DNA of 64,000 nucleotides, taken from positions 1 to 64,000 of the IMG/VR virus record IMGVR_UViG_3300020050_016625, one strand, 5' to 3'. This DNA is from a virus. Its lineage: Duplodnaviria; Caudoviricetes. Under the pieces are notes generated by a model, which was not told the origin of the DNA, did not search any database, and saw only the letters and a program-made list of their open reading frames with translations. Within the stretch, counting starts at the first letter, position 1, and each line of letters opens with the position of its first letter. A program made the translations under genes and the position numbers. This document shows positions 1 through 7,983 of this stretch, piece by piece.

Positions 1-69
1 GGTACGCGCATTTACATAGAAAGAATAAGATTCATTTCCTAATCTATATTCGGTTAAATAATGCTTCAT
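1..69 (-). CDS. 5' part of a cassette-borne ORF running off the window (MKHYLTEYRLGNESYSFYVNART...)
   Basis: ATG at 69-67, 23 open codons to the window edge, starting just after the attC-like site at 84-181. Confidence 0.5.
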   Translation of the reverse strand, partial: MKHYLTEYRLGNESYSFYVNART

Positions 70-83
70 AAATTAATAAAAAA

Positions 84-181
84 GCATAGAACATGTGCAT
101 GAGCGCAGAGGGCAGCGAATCGGCACACAAGGCAAACGCTCCGCAGCCCCCTCGCTCATGCTGGTCGTTATATGAAATGCC
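84..181 (+). other. attC-like recombination site 1
   Basis: GCATAGAAC (84-92), 4-nt spacer, GCATGAGCG/CGCTCATGC stem with unpaired C106, TGGTC spacer, GTTATATG (167-174). Confidence 0.7.
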
Positions 182-245
182 TTGCTGACCGTTTCTAATT
201 GAAGTTTCGTGAAGGAAAAACAAAAAGAAAAAAGCCACCGCACAT

Positions 246-884
246 TTAAAACAATACAGTTTGAGCATGTTCATTTTCAATTCTTTTTTTTGCTATCTTA
301 AAGTATTTCTCATCAATCTCAAATCCAATAAAGTTTCTATTCATATTTATTGCGGCAATACCAGTCGTTCCGCTTCCCATAAAACAATCAAGGATGGTAT
401 CACCTTCTTTTGTGTAATCCTCAATTATTTTTTTCATAAGTCTTATTGGCTTTTCGGTTGGGTGGTATCTTTTACCTCCATTGTCATTCACAAATCCACC
501 GTGCATTACTCTATACATTTTATCATATCCGCTTTTTCTACTTGTCCAAGCAAGTTCAAAAGGGCTTCCAAGTGCTTTGTCTGCACTTTCGTTTGTTCTT
601 TTATCCCAGCAAATCCACCTTCCTCTGTGTGGCAGATATTGAGAAAAACAATTTGCTCCAAAAACAATTTGCTCCATTTTCAATTCAAATAAGAAACTCA
701 AATCCATTCCTTCATCGCCTTGTATATCTCCATAGTCATTGAATGTCGGCAAATTGTTTTTCACAGCATTGTATCCAATTCCATAAGGTGGGTCTGTAAG
801 CAATAGTTTTACATTGCTTATATCAACCTTTGATAGTAGTTCTCTACAATCACCTTTATATATTTCAAAATTTCCTTTTCCCAC
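246..884 (-). CDS. DNA methyltransferase, N6-A/N4-C family (beta class), orphan
   Basis: DPPY motif IV near the N-terminus, HPTEKP, then LDCFMGSGTT motif I and GFEID. Confidence 0.92.
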   Translation of the reverse strand: MGKGNFEIYKGDCRELLSKVDISNVKLLLTDPPYGIGYNAVKNNLPTFNDYGDIQGDEGMDLSFLFELKMEQIVFGANCFSQYLPHRGRWICWDKRTNESADKALGSPFELAWTSRKSGYDKMYRVMHGGFVNDNGGKRYHPTEKPIRLMKKIIEDYTKEGDTILDCFMGSGTTGIAAINMNRNFIGFEIDEKYFKIAKKRIENEHAQTVLF

Positions 885-934
885 GCTTTTTTTTTCTTTT
901 TAGTGTTCCAATTAGGCTTTATCGTAAATAAGTC

Positions 935-1003
935 GGCACTTCATATAACAGCGGTTTGGCGGCATTAAAACGACCGCCAAGCCGCAAAACGTTCTTGGCA
1001 ATT
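935..1003 (+). other. attC-like recombination site 2
   Basis: GGCACTTCATATAAC (935-949), GCGGTTTGGCGG/CCGCCAAGCCGC stem, GTTCTTGGCAATT (991-1003). Confidence 0.7.
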
Positions 1004-1013
1004 AGTGATTTTA

Positions 1014-1463
1014 TTAGTTTGCCAAATCCCTAATATTTGAGAGTTCAAAACCGTACCACATTTTAGCTTCTGTTAAATGTTTCAAAGCGTAGTCAATTTC
1101 TTTTTTCCCTAAATCTCTATCGCCAAGATTGTCCGAATAAGGCTTAAACGATACAATAAGATTTTCAATTTCGCTCCTCATAAAATTGATGTCTTTCAAT
1201 TTATCGCCGCTAAGATTCAGCTCTCCCTCGTAATACTCTGCTGTTTTAGGAATGTCCTTCGCATCTTGTGCTGGTGTATAAGGGTTTGTTTCTCCAAAAG
1301 CAGCCTTGACTTTTCCTAACCATGCTTTTCCCATTTGAAGGGAACGCCAAGCAAGTGTTGTTTCTGCTGAACTTTTTAAGCCTGATAATGATGCTGTTTG
1401 AATCAATTCATCGCATTTTAAGCGAGAATCGTCAATAAATTCAATAAAATAATTCATAATCAA
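1014..1463 (-). CDS. Protein with two Acb2/Tad1-like helical-hairpin motifs (candidate anti-defence protein)
   Basis: SAETTLAWRSLQMGKAWLG and KEIDYALKHLTEAKMWYG both resemble the RExSLAxTKLEEAxMW hairpin pattern; resemblance judged by eye. Confidence 0.45.
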   Translation of the reverse strand: MIMNYFIEFIDDSRLKCDELIQTASLSGLKSSAETTLAWRSLQMGKAWLGKVKAAFGETNPYTPAQDAKDIPKTAEYYEGELNLSGDKLKDINFMRSEIENLIVSFKPYSDNLGDRDLGKKEIDYALKHLTEAKMWYGFELSNIRDLAN

Positions 1464-1489
1464 AAAATATTAAAATGTGAAATAAAATA

Positions 1490-1580
1490 AATTGCCAAGA
1501 ACATTTATATTGCCTCACATGCCGCCTAACCAACGCTACAAATCCAACAGGCGGCACGTAGTCAATATTGGTCATTATTT
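1490..1580 (+). other. attC-like site 3 with degenerate R' (ATT for GTT); right end of the cassette array
   Basis: AATTGCCAAGAAC (1490-1502), 4-nt spacer, ATATTG..TGCCGCCT/AGGCGGCA..CAATAT stem with an unpaired C, TGGTC spacer, ATT at 1574. Confidence 0.6.
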
Positions 1581-1793
1581 AGCGTAATTGATTCAATCAT
1601 TTTTGTTTATATGACAGTTTTTTTTAAACCTACTTGTATTTCTTTTTTCGCATATCGCTACATTAAGTAAAGTTAAGCTAATATACTTCTCACCGCCCTG
1701 CCATAAGATAATGAAATTAGTTTTTGAAATCTACATAGCGTGGGAGTTTTTTATCGCTAAGGTATTTATCTATCATTTCGATTTGTGCATTTG

Positions 1794-2707: not shown

Positions 2708-3149
2708 TGAAATTATATGTTAGTTTGTATTTTATTAGTACATTTATTATGTTTTGTAATTCATGTATATATTTCGGAAACGGTACGCTAATTGTTTGCA
2801 CTCCATAAAAAAAATAGCCTTTATCTGTTTTATTATGGATTAAATGAAACATTGTGCCATTTGCGTTACATATAGGCTGCATATTTTTGTGGATAAAACC
2901 ATTTTCTGTTTTGCTATACCCTAAACCGATTAAAGTACTATCTGTAATTTCAATAGCACCTATTTCTGGGCGTATTGCACTTTTAAACTGTGAATTATCG
3001 GTAAAAGGTATCTGCGAAAACAATTGAACATAACGCTTACCTATATCATTCACAGTTACTAACATATTTTCAGGTTTATATAAAACCAAATTATCTAACA
3101 TGAAATCCATACTGCAATTATTAGTGATATAATAGCTAACAAAAAACAC
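2700..3149 (-). CDS. hypothetical protein (start probably about 3110)
   Basis: ORF overlapping the next gene by 8 bp. Confidence 0.6.
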   Translation of the reverse strand: MFFVSYYITNNCSMDFMLDNLVLYKPENMLVTVNDIGKRYVQLFSQIPFTDNSQFKSAIRPEIGAIEITDSTLIGLGYSKTENGFIHKNMQPICNANGTMFHLIHNKTDKGYFFYGVQTISVPFPKYIHELQNIINVLIKYKLTYNFNE

Positions 3150-3314
3150 AATGAAAATGTTTTAATTCTCATTGTTTTACCCGAAAGTATTACATCTATG
3201 CCTGTTATTTGCTCTCTATCTCTATTCATTTTCAGTAAAGCATAAACCCTACTTAGATTTACATACGAAATAAAGAACAAATAAAGTAGAAAATAAAAGG
3301 TATCGTTACTTTGC

Positions 3315-4124
3315 CTAATACTTATTTTGTCTGTTGCATAATTCAATATGCTTATCTTGTACTGCATTTTCTTTAATGTAAGAATGTAACATATCAAATA
3401 TTTCAAACATATCATCGTCCTTTGGTACTTCAAATAAAACCTTTATCAACTCGCCTTGTGGCATGTATGAAAGAAAATCCCATTTGTTTAACTCGCAAAT
3501 ATACATATTAAATTGCGTTTGACAATACCAATCAAACTTTGTTTGCCGCAACATATCTGCATTTTCGCATTGTAGCATATCCAAATATGAGTTTTCGCTT
3601 TGTGGGCATTTCATTTCAACACCGCTAATAATTTTACCACCTCTTGAATGAAAACCATAATCTACATAATCAGGACTACAACCCATTGTACTATCTGCAT
3701 TTTCCACAAACGCCACATCTCTATAACCTGCATACTCATTTTGCTTTGTGTTCACATACCAATCTTTTGCAAAGTCTTCGTAATAAGAACCCTTTGCCAT
3801 ATCCTTAGTTTGTACCTTTGGTAAATGTACACTTAATGGCTTACCTATCCTACGTTCCTCACATAAACGCAAACAAAGCCTATCTAAAACCGTTTTGCTT
3901 GCTAATTTATACTTATTTGGCTTTTTAGGAATAACACCTGCTTGGATATTATTAAGACTATCAAAAAAAGTAGTCTTTTTCTGCATTTCCTTTATATCCT
4001 TTTCAGTAGTTAAATTTATGTAATTATAAACCTCACTACCTGTTACTTTACCTGCACGCAAAGCAAGCCATTCTTTTGTGCGTTGCTCTACGTGCAGATG
4101 TATTTTATACTTAGTTAGCTGCAT
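3315..4124 (-). CDS. YqaJ/lambda-exonuclease-like recombination nuclease
   Basis: EQRTKEWLALRAGKVTGSE, GCSPD, EMKCP, QTQFNM motifs. Confidence 0.88.
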   Translation of the reverse strand: MQLTKYKIHLHVEQRTKEWLALRAGKVTGSEVYNYINLTTEKDIKEMQKKTTFFDSLNNIQAGVIPKKPNKYKLASKTVLDRLCLRLCEERRIGKPLSVHLPKVQTKDMAKGSYYEDFAKDWYVNTKQNEYAGYRDVAFVENADSTMGCSPDYVDYGFHSRGGKIISGVEMKCPQSENSYLDMLQCENADMLRQTKFDWYCQTQFNMYICELNKWDFLSYMPQGELIKVLFEVPKDDDMFEIFDMLHSYIKENAVQDKHIELCNRQNKY

Positions 4125-5265
4125 TTTCAGTTTTTTCAGATGCTAATTTTGCGGCTGCTTTTTCTGCCGCTAATTTCTCAAATCTTTGCTTTTCAATCAC
4201 TATCTTATCTGCAATTTCATTTTCAAGTGATGTAATTTCAGGAGACTTATTCATGTCAATATAAGCCAAAAACTTAATCTCATCTAAACCCCTACCTTGT
4301 AATTGATATGCAAATAAATTCCTTCTTATTGCATATAAGTAAGGATTCTCACTATCCTGTAAAGAAGCCATTACTTCGTTTTTATAAGTAGTATCAAATT
4401 GCTTGTTACTATTTGCAATATTGTCTAATTTAATATGTCTTAATAACTCATTAATATCTACAATAACCTTTTCAGTAATGTTTTCTGCCAATCCTGTTTC
4501 TTTATCGAAACCTTCGGGGATAGTATCGCTATAATCATTATCTAAATCGTATTGCGCCAAATCACTAAACATATCACTAAACACAGTACGGCAAAGGTGC
4601 AATAAGCTGCATTTTAAAGCCATTGATTCGTACCATTCTACCCAAAAAGAATCTTTTGACTTGGATTTACCCATACGTTTCAATACGTCTTCATTTGACA
4701 TAATTTGTGCGTATGTAGCTACAATAATACCTTTTTCATCTCTCACAATAGCATTTGTGTAGTAGAAATTAATATCATTACTATCTTTTGTAAGTTCACT
4801 AAAATTGCCACGTTTTCCTGTTACAAGTTCGCCTAATGCAGTCAAATCACTTGAAAATGAATCGCCATGTCTTGAAACGCCTGGCGTTAAATAAATACCT
4901 TTATCCCTACCTGCATTAATATAAGCATTGTAACCTATGATAATTTGCAACTTACCACCATACGGAACGGGGTGCGCTGTTTTCTCATGTGGATTAAATG
5001 AAAGATATTTGTTAGTACATACAATCCACAAGCAATAACGGTAAGAATCTATTGAGGCTGCTACCAATGCTTGGTTTTTCCACACCGATAAGGCAGAAAT
5101 TCTTTGCCAAAGGTATTCAATTTCTGCTTTTAATTGCAAAGGATTTAAGGCTTTTTCCTTAATAAAAGCCTCGTCATTTCCTATCTCAAATAACTTTATT
5201 TTGAACGCATCTACAACGACTTGCATTTGCTGTTCTTTCGTTAAAGGAACGGTATTTTGTGTCAT
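4111..5265 (-). CDS. RecT-like single-strand annealing protein
   Basis: HPVPYGGKLQIIIGYNAY and FWVEWYESMALK motifs; adjacent to the exonuclease. Confidence 0.8.
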   Translation of the reverse strand: MTQNTVPLTKEQQMQVVVDAFKIKLFEIGNDEAFIKEKALNPLQLKAEIEYLWQRISALSVWKNQALVAASIDSYRYCLWIVCTNKYLSFNPHEKTAHPVPYGGKLQIIIGYNAYINAGRDKGIYLTPGVSRHGDSFSSDLTALGELVTGKRGNFSELTKDSNDINFYYTNAIVRDEKGIIVATYAQIMSNEDVLKRMGKSKSKDSFWVEWYESMALKCSLLHLCRTVFSDMFSDLAQYDLDNDYSDTIPEGFDKETGLAENITEKVIVDINELLRHIKLDNIANSNKQFDTTYKNEVMASLQDSENPYLYAIRRNLFAYQLQGRGLDEIKFLAYIDMNKSPEITSLENEIADKIVIEKQRFEKLAAEKAAAKLASEKTENAAN

Positions 5266-5311
5266 TTATATATTTGATTATTAATTAATTACCTGTAAAT
5301 ATAACAAAATT

Positions 5312-6937
5312 TTAGCTATTTTGTTTGTTTTTGCTATGTTTTTCTGCATATTTTAACCAATCAGCATGTTGCAAATCTACCCATTGTTTAGAATAGCCTA
5401 ATTTTTTAGCAATAGCCTTTAACTCTTCCAAATTTGGATAGCTATTATCAGCTTTTAGCACCTCACAGAAATTAGCATAAATCTTATAATTACTAATATT
5501 ATGCTTTTTGCCTAACAATAATTCTCTATTGAAAATATCTATCCTGAAAATACCATTTACCACAATCAATCCAACGCCTTCAACTCCATTAGGATATTTC
5601 TTTTCAAACTGTTCTTTTGTTAGTATTAAGGTTAAATCGTCTTCTTTTACCTTAATACCTTCCATGAACGGTTTTTTGCCCTTCTTTTTTCCCATACCTT
5701 CAAAATATTCATACCAATCATGTTCTGCATTTGGCAAACCATGTTCTTCATAACAGTTTGCTAAATCAATTAGGATATAATGCGTTTTTCCTGTATCAGG
5801 ATTAGGACGAGAACCACGTCCGCACATTTGCAGGTATAGGCTTAATGACTTTGTAGGACGTGCTAAAATGACACATTCGCATATTGGTAAATCTGTGCCT
5901 TCTGAAACAATACCTACATTTACAACTACTTGGTAATTTCGTTTTGAAAAGTCTTCAAATATTTTCTTTCTTGAATCTTTATCCATACTGCCATCAACAT
6001 GCACCGCAGAAATACCTTTACTAAGGAATTTTTCTACAATATGCTTGCTATGCTTTACATCAACTGCAAAACAAATAGCTTGCTTATTATTAGCATATTC
6101 TATGTAGGATTGAACTATGTCTGCTGTAACCTCGCCGTTATCCATCAACTCACTTAACTCCTCTTTATCGTAGTCTCTCATTCCTTTCATTTGGGCATTT
6201 ATACGGTCAAACGCTGACTTATCAATATCAGGTATATGCAGCAAAGAAGGGCAAAGATGATTGTGTTTTTCTAACCAATAAACCGATTTACCGCAAACTA
6301 AGGTGTCATACAAATCCGTAAAGCCTAAACCTTCTAATCTGTATGGAGTTGCTGTTAATCCTAATATTTTACAGCCATGTTCTTTATGGGCTTTTATGAT
6401 TTTTTGGTAGGAATTTGAACGGCTGTGATGTGCCTCGTCTATGACAATTAAAGTCCATTGTGTTTTTACTTGTCTATCTGTGTTTTCTTTGTCTGCTTTT
6501 TTGCCTGAAAATAAATCTACCTTTGCTTTATGTTTATTTTTCTTTGTATAAAAGGTATCATCTGTATAAACTCTATTTACGTAGGTATCAACACTACCTA
6601 CTTGCACCATTGTATCCAAATTGGTAACACCTGACTGCACACGCCCACAAGCAACGCCCTCACTTAGTAGTGTATCTGCTATTTGGTCAATAATTTCACT
6701 TCTATGTGCTAATACAAGCACCTTTGCTTTAATGCCCTTTTTCTGCATTAATTCGCAATGGTCTAATATTAGTTTAGACATAATCACCGTTTTGCCTGAA
6801 CCTGTACCTGACTGTATCATAACAGCAGCAAGTTCCTTTATAAACATAGCATGGTTAGCGGAATCTATAACGCTTTGTTGATAAGGGCGTGCGGTTTTAG
6901 GCTTTACAACCAGTTGCTTTTGTATGGCTTGTTTCAT
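5312..6937 (-). CDS. SF2 DEAH-box helicase
   Basis: GTGSGKT, IDEAHH, GLTATP, EGTDLP, QMCGRGSR. Confidence 0.93.
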   Translation of the reverse strand: MKQAIQKQLVVKPKTARPYQQSVIDSANHAMFIKELAAVMIQSGTGSGKTVIMSKLILDHCELMQKKGIKAKVLVLAHRSEIIDQIADTLLSEGVACGRVQSGVTNLDTMVQVGSVDTYVNRVYTDDTFYTKKNKHKAKVDLFSGKKADKENTDRQVKTQWTLIVIDEAHHSRSNSYQKIIKAHKEHGCKILGLTATPYRLEGLGFTDLYDTLVCGKSVYWLEKHNHLCPSLLHIPDIDKSAFDRINAQMKGMRDYDKEELSELMDNGEVTADIVQSYIEYANNKQAICFAVDVKHSKHIVEKFLSKGISAVHVDGSMDKDSRKKIFEDFSKRNYQVVVNVGIVSEGTDLPICECVILARPTKSLSLYLQMCGRGSRPNPDTGKTHYILIDLANCYEEHGLPNAEHDWYEYFEGMGKKKGKKPFMEGIKVKEDDLTLILTKEQFEKKYPNGVEGVGLIVVNGIFRIDIFNRELLLGKKHNISNYKIYANFCEVLKADNSYPNLEELKAIAKKLGYSKQWVDLQHADWLKYAEKHSKNKQNS

Positions 6938-6981
6938 TGATATTCTTTTCCTAATAACAAAAAAAGCAGTTGCATTGTTTG

Positions 6982-7983
6982 TTATTTGCCCTGTAAAACA
7001 CTCTTTGCACTTGCGTTATTCATTATGTTGAAATTTCTGTCAAGTATGATATTTTCTATATTACAAATGCCATTATATGTTTCTATATAGATAAATCCGT
7101 TTGTCCAATTATTTACGCCTGTATAGCTTGGTGATAAGCTACACAAACAGCCGCCTATATGTACTTCTACTATTTTGTCGTAAAAAGGCACTATTGCATG
7201 TTGCGACCTATGCAAATGTTGATAGATAAGATTTACCCCTGCATTTACAGCCGTTTGTCTTGCTGCATTAATACCACCACGTAGAAAAGATTTTGATTCA
7301 TGCCCATGTGCAATATAGAAATTCCCTACCTGCATTAATTGATTGCTTGGCACATACTCAATACCAAAGTTTGCATGTTTTAGTAGATTTTTCAATTCAA
7401 ACTCCTCAACGCCTAAAACGGCTGTATTTTGCTGTATATATCTTTCATGCCTGTATTCATGGTTTCCAAATTTATGTATGATTGCGGCTTTTGGGAATAG
7501 CTGGCGCAAATGCTTGAAAAAGGTTATACATACTTGCAACTCCTCACTAAAAGAACGGTGGTCGCTACTTTTTTGAAAACTACTTTGTTGATAGCAGTCT
7601 ATTAAGTCTCCATTAAGTAAGATACAATCAACATTTTTATATTTGCCGTATTTTAAGCCTATTAGTAGGGCTTTTAATTCATGGTAAGGGAAATGTATAT
7701 CACTTAAATCTAAGATTCTTTCATAGCTTAAAACAAGATTTTTAGGCGCAATATCGCAAGCCTCACCTTGTGGAAAATCCATGAATGTAAGTTCAATATC
7801 TAAGATAGATTCATTTTTAACTACAACATCTGCTACTTTTAATACATTTAATTCCTTTGCCGCTAATATAAAACTTTCCGCAGTACTACGTGAAACATTA
7901 AATTCTTTCATTACTTTTTCCCTACCAAATAGACCCTGTCTAAGTTTTTGAGCTATGATAGCTATAATTTGTGAATTTTCCAT
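6982..7983 (-). CDS. calcineurin-like metallophosphoesterase with N-terminal HTH-like segment
   Basis: SDIH, NGDLID, GNHE, HGHE, HLH motifs. Confidence 0.85.
   Translation of the reverse strand: MENSQIIAIIAQKLRQGLFGREKVMKEFNVSRSTAESFILAAKELNVLKVADVVVKNESILDIELTFMDFPQGEACDIAPKNLVLSYERILDLSDIHFPYHELKALLIGLKYGKYKNVDCILLNGDLIDCYQQSSFQKSSDHRSFSEELQVCITFFKHLRQLFPKAAIIHKFGNHEYRHERYIQQNTAVLGVEEFELKNLLKHANFGIEYVPSNQLMQVGNFYIAHGHESKSFLRGGINAARQTAVNAGVNLIYQHLHRSQHAIVPFYDKIVEVHIGGCLCSLSPSYTGVNNWTNGFIYIETYNGICNIENIILDRNFNIMNNASAKSVLQGK

Follow-up and report, generated by a model that had tools for sequence, protein, structure and literature searches.

Positions 1 to 1580 of the DNA analyzed here probably form the outer end of a phage-borne, integron-like array of cassettes. 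The window is the first 64 kb (64,000 nucleotides) of the virus record IMGVR_UViG_3300020050_016625, which has 134,863 bases and is 88% complete; its source is a large phage with a probable host among the Bacteroidota, and its origin is wastewater or freshwater. In this region, three attC-like hairpin sites (sites 1 to 3) delimit two one-gene cassettes, one with a DNA methyltransferase gene and one with a gene of unassigned family (gene B), and a third gene (gene C) is cut by the contig start. The array may also belong to a phage-centered integron-like system of its own kind, in which a Xer-type recombinase acts on folded single-strand sites, the genes lie on the folding strand, and a universal frame serves to exchange counter-defence genes between unrelated phages. 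For this broader proposal we consider the balance to be even.

The cassette borders were placed by comparison with other contigs, which were reached through proteins identical or close to those of gene B and the methyltransferase and are labeled here with L-numbers (L027 is also the genome G010, and L122 is a Chitinophaga metagenome-assembled genome, or MAG). On the minus strand, the methyltransferase cassette (168..991) consists of the inner hairpin of site 2, a 5' untranslated region (5'UTR), the open reading frame (ORF), and a 3'UTR, and cassette B (992..1574) consists of the site 3 hairpin, a 5'UTR, gene B, and a 22-nt 3'UTR. L005, L006, and L007 carry cassette B with 100% identity, in flanks that differ past both borders. 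From 992 to 1576 on the plus strand, L006 and L007 match the window letter for letter. They diverge from it at base 991, where the window has G and the relatives have A with the following TT in common, and L007 departs again directly after the ATT of site 3 (beyond 1576). A first-pass annotation of this DNA, made from the sequence without database searches, had predicted gain or loss of exactly 992-1574 in relatives, and the borders in L006 and L007 agree with it. Its suggestion that site 3 is a fixed array end does not hold, because L007 carries different DNA past that site.

The corresponding prediction for 168-991 was borne out in four metagenomes from four studies (wastewater, activated sludge, and freshwater). 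There, contigs span 166-993 only; homology stops at 166/167 and at 993, and differing, unrelated sequence is attached to these loose ends. The methyltransferase unit also recurs among other neighbors in L008 and L009 (97% amino-acid identity in both) and in L010 (82%). In these three contigs the homology ends at the site 1 triplet, and the inner hairpin of site 2 accompanies the gene in diverged form. In L010 the 15-nt end-to-end pairing is maintained by compensatory changes, with a G.T wobble in the same place. The comparison shows both cassettes to be discrete units with borders at AA|C (G|TT or A|TT on the plus strand).

These borders fall within the three G+C-rich imperfect hairpins that the first pass had placed at 84-181, 935-1003, and 1490-1580, coordinates that proved correct. 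All three sites are assigned to the minus strand and are described here as read on the plus strand. Site 1 (84..181) has AAC at 90-92, a 4-nt spacer, an imperfect hairpin, a TGGTC spacer, and GTT at 167-169, with the crossover position at 167|168. Site 2 (935..1003) has AAC at 947-949 and GTT at 991-993 around a 12-bp stem (951-962 / 974-985) with an 11-nt loop (963-973), and its crossover position is 991|992. Site 3 (1490..1580), the last recognizable site, has AAC at 1500-1502, a hairpin, a TGGTC spacer, and ATT in place of GTT at 1574-1576, with the crossover position at 1574|1575. The layout that sites 1 and 3 had been said to share (4-nt spacer, 9-nt arm, unpaired C, and TGGTC) was found on the plus strand in both. 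When folded, sites 1 and 3 have unpaired spacers of 5 and 4 nt and one extrahelical G; in site 2 the spacer is 5/1, and a bulge is absent. The site lengths of 98, 69, and 91 nt are inside the attC span of roughly 57-141 nt. The minus strand, whose folding the first pass had called for, folds better than the plus strand at all three sites (z of -3.0, -2.4, and -3.4 for sites 1, 2, and 3, versus -1.4, -2.3, and -2.1). Site 1 is the top G+C island of the entire record, and comparable hairpins are rare in the rest of it. No Rfam family reached its gathering score in the window. A loose motif scan for the sites was uninformative, with hundreds of matches in A+T-rich DNA, and no further sites were found in 1577..1793 or elsewhere in the record.

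The ends of neighboring sites are complementary to each other. The right arm of site 1 (167-181) pairs with the left arm of site 2 (935-949) at 14 of 15 positions, an offset repeat that was recovered independently of its first report. The second offset repeat, first recorded as 13 of 13 positions (991-1003 / 1490-1502), is real and extends further, to 16 of 17 positions over 987-1003 and 1490-1506. When the three sites were shuffled 1000 times, neither pair ever attained 14/15, which rules out a chance origin of these repeats.

Sites with the same layout, which on the gene-sense strand reads TAAC, G, a 4-nt spacer, stem, T, and GTTA, form arrays of five to eight in L008, L018, and L019 and are also found in L017 and L020. 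L019 is clearly a phage, with a VapE-type primase-helicase, ERF, Endo VII, and Mom. Between adjacent sites, the right end of one and the left end of the next pair on average at 10.35 of the 12 positions beyond the triplets, compared with 6.41/12 for non-adjacent sites and 6.65/12 for a site with itself (Mann-Whitney p = 2e-8). The 11 well-paired ends contain 12 G.T and 0 A.C pairs on the gene-sense strand, and position 11 is G.T in 11/11. Because G.T occurs on the gene-sense strand and A.C does not, the fold is selected on the strand that carries the genes. When a cassette is circularized in silico, its entire non-coding region from stop codon to start codon forms one long hairpin (circle-junction z of -6.7 for the methyltransferase cassette and -7.2 for cassette B), and in the methyltransferase cassette the T-rich tract of the 3'UTR pairs with the A-rich leader. 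Since the 3'UTR adjoins the hairpin of its neighbor in the array, this long hairpin would exist only after circularization. These data show a predicted fold that is strand specific, that co-varies, and that is present only with the cassette ends joined.

In a separate contig of IMG/VR, L037, a sequence resembling a tRNA T-arm and 3' end lies ~40 nt upstream of the first site and runs straight into its ...CTAAC, so to judge from the letters this array may begin directly at a tRNA gene.

Two further readings of the paired ends have to be weighed. In one, the elements act only as RNA: the hairpins are terminators or processing sites, pairing between 5' and 3' UTR closes the mRNA, and mobility is incidental. 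The folding strand is the sense strand and every wobble is compatible with G.U, the pairing extends from stop codon to start codon, and the genes form an early operon that runs in a single direction. This reading leaves unexplained the DNA-level borders at the triplets in many contexts and the recombinase that adjoins related arrays (see below). Moreover, the hairpins have no T-run right behind them, and in the array a neighbor's hairpin follows each 3'UTR, so that the long hairpin needs circularization. We regard an RNA-only role as improbable.

In the other, the units are non-autonomous transposons with terminal inverted repeats and a passenger gene. Single genes are indeed flanked by 15-17-nt inverted repeats, and the same ends occur with many cargos. 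The repeats are not conserved, however, but vary between cassettes and co-vary; target-site duplications are absent, no transposase was seen, and the units always adjoin a hairpin site, head to tail and in a single orientation. This possibility is very slight, and we set it aside on the lack of duplications and the strict arraying of the units.

The non-coding parts of the methyltransferase cassette form a frame that recurs around many other genes. On the minus strand, its 5'UTR half (885..949) opens with GTT at 949-947, and its 3'UTR half (170..245) terminates in the 15-nt arm 167-181. In the four metagenomes, the cassette ends (166-249 and 887-993) are covered 20-130x deeper than the methyltransferase ORF. 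The first 34 nt of the 5'UTR half (949-916) have an exact match in 21 IMG/VR contigs and 78 metagenome contigs. In 54 distinct complete units, one to four ORFs lie inside the frame, in ~40 protein clusters. The leader from GTT to the start codon is 65-77 nt long (~75 typically, 65 in the window) in front of many different ORFs. The distance from stop codon to AAC is ~79 nt in most of the 54 units and 92 nt in a few, and the last 15 nt of the frame 3'UTR are the arm ending in AAC. There are 53 distinct right junctions, with conservation ending at AAC, and 75 distinct versions of the inner hairpin ahead of the frame. The flanks of the 21 viral loci have a median of 1.7% of their length in common, so that the 21 backbones are unrelated. 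A sample of 401 bacterial genomes from the phylum to which the Chitinophaga MAG belongs did not contain the frame.

The identifiable cargo consists for the most part of DNA-modification enzymes. The Pfam families include several N6/N4 methylases, MT-A70, an EcoRI-type methylase, Mom, Tet/JBP together with an FkbM methyltransferase, a TET-associated glycosyltransferase (TAGT), and a PAPS-reductase-like protein. The counter-defence cargo proposed in the first pass is supported at the level of families, with methylases, Mom, Tet/JBP, and TAGT in framed units; the label proposed for gene B is unproven. In L043, one framed unit (1365-2971) contains both a Tet/JBP oxygenase and an FkbM-type methyltransferase. 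The gene content of such units suggests that entire base-hypermodification pathways may travel as cassettes.

The inner hairpin of site 1 recurs in the phage contig L123, with other flanks and without a recombinase. Directly past this copy, on the opposite strand, L123 encodes an 859-aa fused restriction-modification-type protein (2910-5489; HSDR_N, N6_Mtase, and Eco57I).

The frame raises the possibility that no site-specific enzyme is involved, and that the hairpins and UTRs are regulatory modules that double as homology patches for RecT/YqaJ and ERF recombination, which would shuffle genes in the manner of the promoter-stem-loop (PeSL) modules of T4-type phages. This would account for an identical frame around ~40 cargos with borders at start and stop codons, and for inner hairpins that are reassorted relative to cargo; the enzymes are also at hand, with RecT and YqaJ 2-4 kb away in the window and ERF and Endo VII adjoining the L019 array. 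It would not account for cassette B, which joins sites that have the triplet alone in common and at which the switch is made at a single base. Nor does such exchange need co-varying end pairing with an invariant, strand-specific wobble, or a tyrosine recombinase that keeps the same spacing to the array end in two unrelated genomes. Homology alone is, in our view, an unlikely explanation, and we retain it below as a second layer of an integron-like array.

The first-pass statement that the window encodes no integrase is correct and extends to the whole record. With three sites in 1.5 kb and no tyrosine recombinase in 134,863 bases, the region fits the definition of a cluster of attC sites lacking integron-integrases (CALIN). 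The contig end truncates the array, and an integrase could lie past that end; the array also points to the contig start, so a recombinase gene, if present, would be in the missing part. Leftward extension gave no sequence: searches of viral contigs with the first 39 bases of the record, and of metagenome contigs with the start of gene C, found no match. Among the related viral records, the exception is G010, a complete 62.9-kb phage with a 277-aa tyrosine recombinase that starts ~50 nt past the TAAC of the last cassette on the same strand. The Chitinophaga MAG has the same arrangement of three chained sites, a final TAAC, 50 nt, and then a recombinase. The G010 recombinase scores best with a Xer model (199.5 bits; cut-off 220), and scores 168 bits with the integron-integrase model TIGR02249 (cut-off 265) and 102 bits with NF011946 (cut-off 435). 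The Xer-like recombinase family is large and well conserved. Of the integron-type shuffling proposed in the first pass, the cassette borders and the pairing of sites are supported, and this support does not extend to an IntI-type recombinase: the one beside relatives' arrays is Xer-like and falls below the integron-integrase cut-off. In G010, a 236-aa methyltransferase ORF (L027 2763-3526) starts in the loop of the preceding hairpin site, so that site and coding sequence overlap.

These sites could instead be classical attC sites, and the array a true CALIN whose cassettes a genuine host IntI mobilizes in the course of infection. The AAC and GTT triplets, the hairpin length, the G|TT crossover, and the offset complementarity all fit attC, and the majority of phages with such sites have no recombinase at all. 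In addition, IntI1-mediated recombination was demonstrated for 5 of 6 predicted phage sites tested (Qi et al. 2023, PMC9892861). The nearest tested relative of site 2 is the remaining one, P12002L_attC1 (L021 30012-30055), whose 11-nt loop and layout are those of site 2; HattCI alone had predicted it (Qi et al. 2023, PMC9892861). Other features also speak against IntI. The adjoining recombinase reaches 168 bits against a 265-bit cut-off and has only 277 aa, the genes lie on the folding strand in reverse of integron cassettes, and the paired R arm is ~15 bp and not 7 bp. Movement by a host IntI is rather unlikely on this evidence, and a Xer-type enzyme remains our preferred candidate.

Read on the minus strand, a cassette consists of the C of AAC or AAT, a short spacer, the inner hairpin, a second spacer, GTT, the 5'UTR, the gene, the 3'UTR, and AA. 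In the mechanism that we propose, it would leave the array as a circle, whose non-coding region would fold, when single-stranded, into one long hairpin. A tyrosine recombinase would then cut at AA|C and join the cassette to a similar site or to the site at an array end. The likeliest enzyme would be a member of the Xer-like family encoded ~50 nt past the last site in G010 and the Chitinophaga genome; it would be encoded in the missing ~12% beyond the contig start or supplied in trans. As a second layer, phage recombination of the RecT/YqaJ type would probably swap cargo from start codon to stop codon within identical frames. We infer from comparison of the letters all three elements of this scheme, that is, circular excision, catalysis by a tyrosine recombinase (most likely Xer-like), and homologous swapping of cargo in the frame.

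Several observations weigh against an array that is moved in this way. There was no match to a tyrosine recombinase (PF00589) in the 134,863-base record, and none in 24 of 25 related viral records, five of which are rated 90-100% complete. Circle or deletion junctions were not observed, and the evidence is wholly comparative. The site that adjoins cassette B in L006 and L007 has no GTT. In L123, the DNA differs on both sides of hairpin 1, which a single AA|C crossover does not predict. A single crossover also does not predict the reassortment of hairpins and cargo, as seen for one methyltransferase that was found behind five different inner hairpins; the link between hairpin and cargo is unstable. 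The G.T wobbles on the sense strand fit pairing in mRNA equally well. Finally, P12002L_attC1 is the one tested site for which IntI1 recombinants were not verified (Qi et al. 2023, PMC9892861).

All genes in the first 8 kb of the record are on the minus strand, and the genes lie in an early operon that runs in one direction throughout. The methyltransferase gene (246..884, minus) starts with GTG and encodes an orphan N6/N4 DNA methyltransferase of 212 aa, an assignment already made in the first pass and confirmed by PF01555 (E 4e-30) and phrog_67 (E 2e-51). Its cargo role is presumably anti-restriction. The protein P0050 is a 97% identical relative, and an exact look-up of the product returned no match. 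Within the ORF, a perfect 16-nt tandem duplication (644-675) leaves the frame open and is kept in L008, L009, and L010.

Gene B (1014..1457, minus) encodes a 147-aa protein that is predicted to be a four-helix bundle (pLDDT 87) and has 49 homologues. The first pass called it Acb2/Tad1-like, and this assignment fared poorly. The hairpin domain of Acb2/Tad1, PF24729, did not match the window protein at E <= 1 and matched 5 of 27 homologues below threshold (best E 3e-4); the one such match whose score was seen has 15 bits, below the 27-bit cut-off. Fold searches of the Protein Data Bank (PDB) and BFVD gave no match at E <= 0.001; they and a PDB profile search turned up generic helical bundles only, and no Acb2 or Tad1 chains were among the PDB fold matches listed. 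A language-model look-up named the Acb2/Tad1 family with fairly high confidence, which we take as a lead only. With sub-threshold matches in homologues and none for the window protein, the label is possible but unproven. The relative L001 has no G+C-rich hairpins and keeps the neighborhood with differing genes: in order, Acb3 (PF25187), a gene B homologue (79%), an extra 90-aa gene, and a different N6/N4 methyltransferase (5215-7424).

Only the first 23 codons of gene C (1..69, minus) are present. As the first pass had noted, this ORF runs from 69 off the contig edge, and site 1 precedes it on the gene-sense strand. These 23 residues match no family. We tried gene C as the N terminus of the Xer-like recombinase family and rejected it, as it scored 0.3 bits and shuffles scored as well.

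Past the last site, the DNA outside the cassettes (1577..1793, minus) has a 26-codon ORF (~1717-1797) and leads into the minus-strand genes SEC-C, YqaJ, RecT, and a helicase. The record has a G+C content of 32%; it lacks a terminal repeat, and its ends do not connect with each other. Among GenBank phages, similarity did not go past the methyltransferase core, and single-protein scans of IMG/VR with gene B and with its neighbor gave nothing useful. In L006, a GH18-type gene on the opposite strand (1-564) takes the place of the genes seen in the window, and cassette B is followed by an uncharacterized gene of 233+ aa (2274-2972); the phage population is mosaic outside the array too. The latter gene, which follows the odd site, was considered as an integrase and matched no family.

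If the proposed system is real, phages own a site-specific means to stock and swap anti-restriction genes, the mirror image of bacterial integrons, which were recently found to store anti-phage defences. A Xer-like catalyst would widen the known range of recombinases with activity on folded single-stranded sites. An identical frame around ~40 cargos offers a simple system for testing how integron-type cassettes are born, and the frame can be used as a probe for phage counter-defence genes in metagenomes.

The array shares features with several known systems. In the PeSL modules of T4-type phages, stem-loops lie between small early genes and are tied to modular shuffling. Separation of small early phage genes by stem-loops and gene shuffling are common to both; exchange at PeSLs is thought to be driven by homology, and we know of no conserved AAC/GTT triplets, co-varying end pairing, or linked tyrosine recombinase in PeSLs. 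In the sedentary chromosomal integrons of Vibrio, near-identical attC repeats (VCRs) surround many unrelated ORFs, which resembles the one conserved non-coding sequence with ~40 clusters of cargo described here. Unlike VCRs, the frame is found on 21 unrelated phage backbones and not on one chromosome, and it extends exactly to the start and stop codons. If catalysis is by the Xer-like enzyme, Xer-dependent integrating elements such as CTX phage would be a parallel in mechanism. There, XerCD at dif acts on a hairpin formed from single-stranded DNA, so a Xer enzyme works on a folded single strand, and a whole genome enters one chromosomal site; here, the units would be small cassettes arranged head to tail.

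Closest are the phage CALINs, which are already known to carry methyltransferase cassettes: phages were reported to have 17 CALINs, whose cassettes include five with a methyltransferase (Qi et al. 2023, PMC9892861), and our literature search found no other paper on phage attC or CALIN cassettes. Like those, the array has imperfect hairpins (69-98 nt here), AAC and GTT triplets, a G|TT crossover, one-gene units with ends complementary across the crossover, methyltransferase cargo, and no integrase in the phage. It differs from integrons in several respects. The genes here are on the folding (bottom) strand and point to the recombinase side; each has its own conserved 65-77-nt leader, whereas integron cassettes carry promoterless ORFs; the outer arm pairs over ~15 bp, always with G.T at position 11, versus 7 bp in integron attC; and the recombinase beside relatives' arrays is Xer-like and below the IntI cut-off. 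The system works like an integron and fails two of the defining features of one, the orientation of the genes and IntI.

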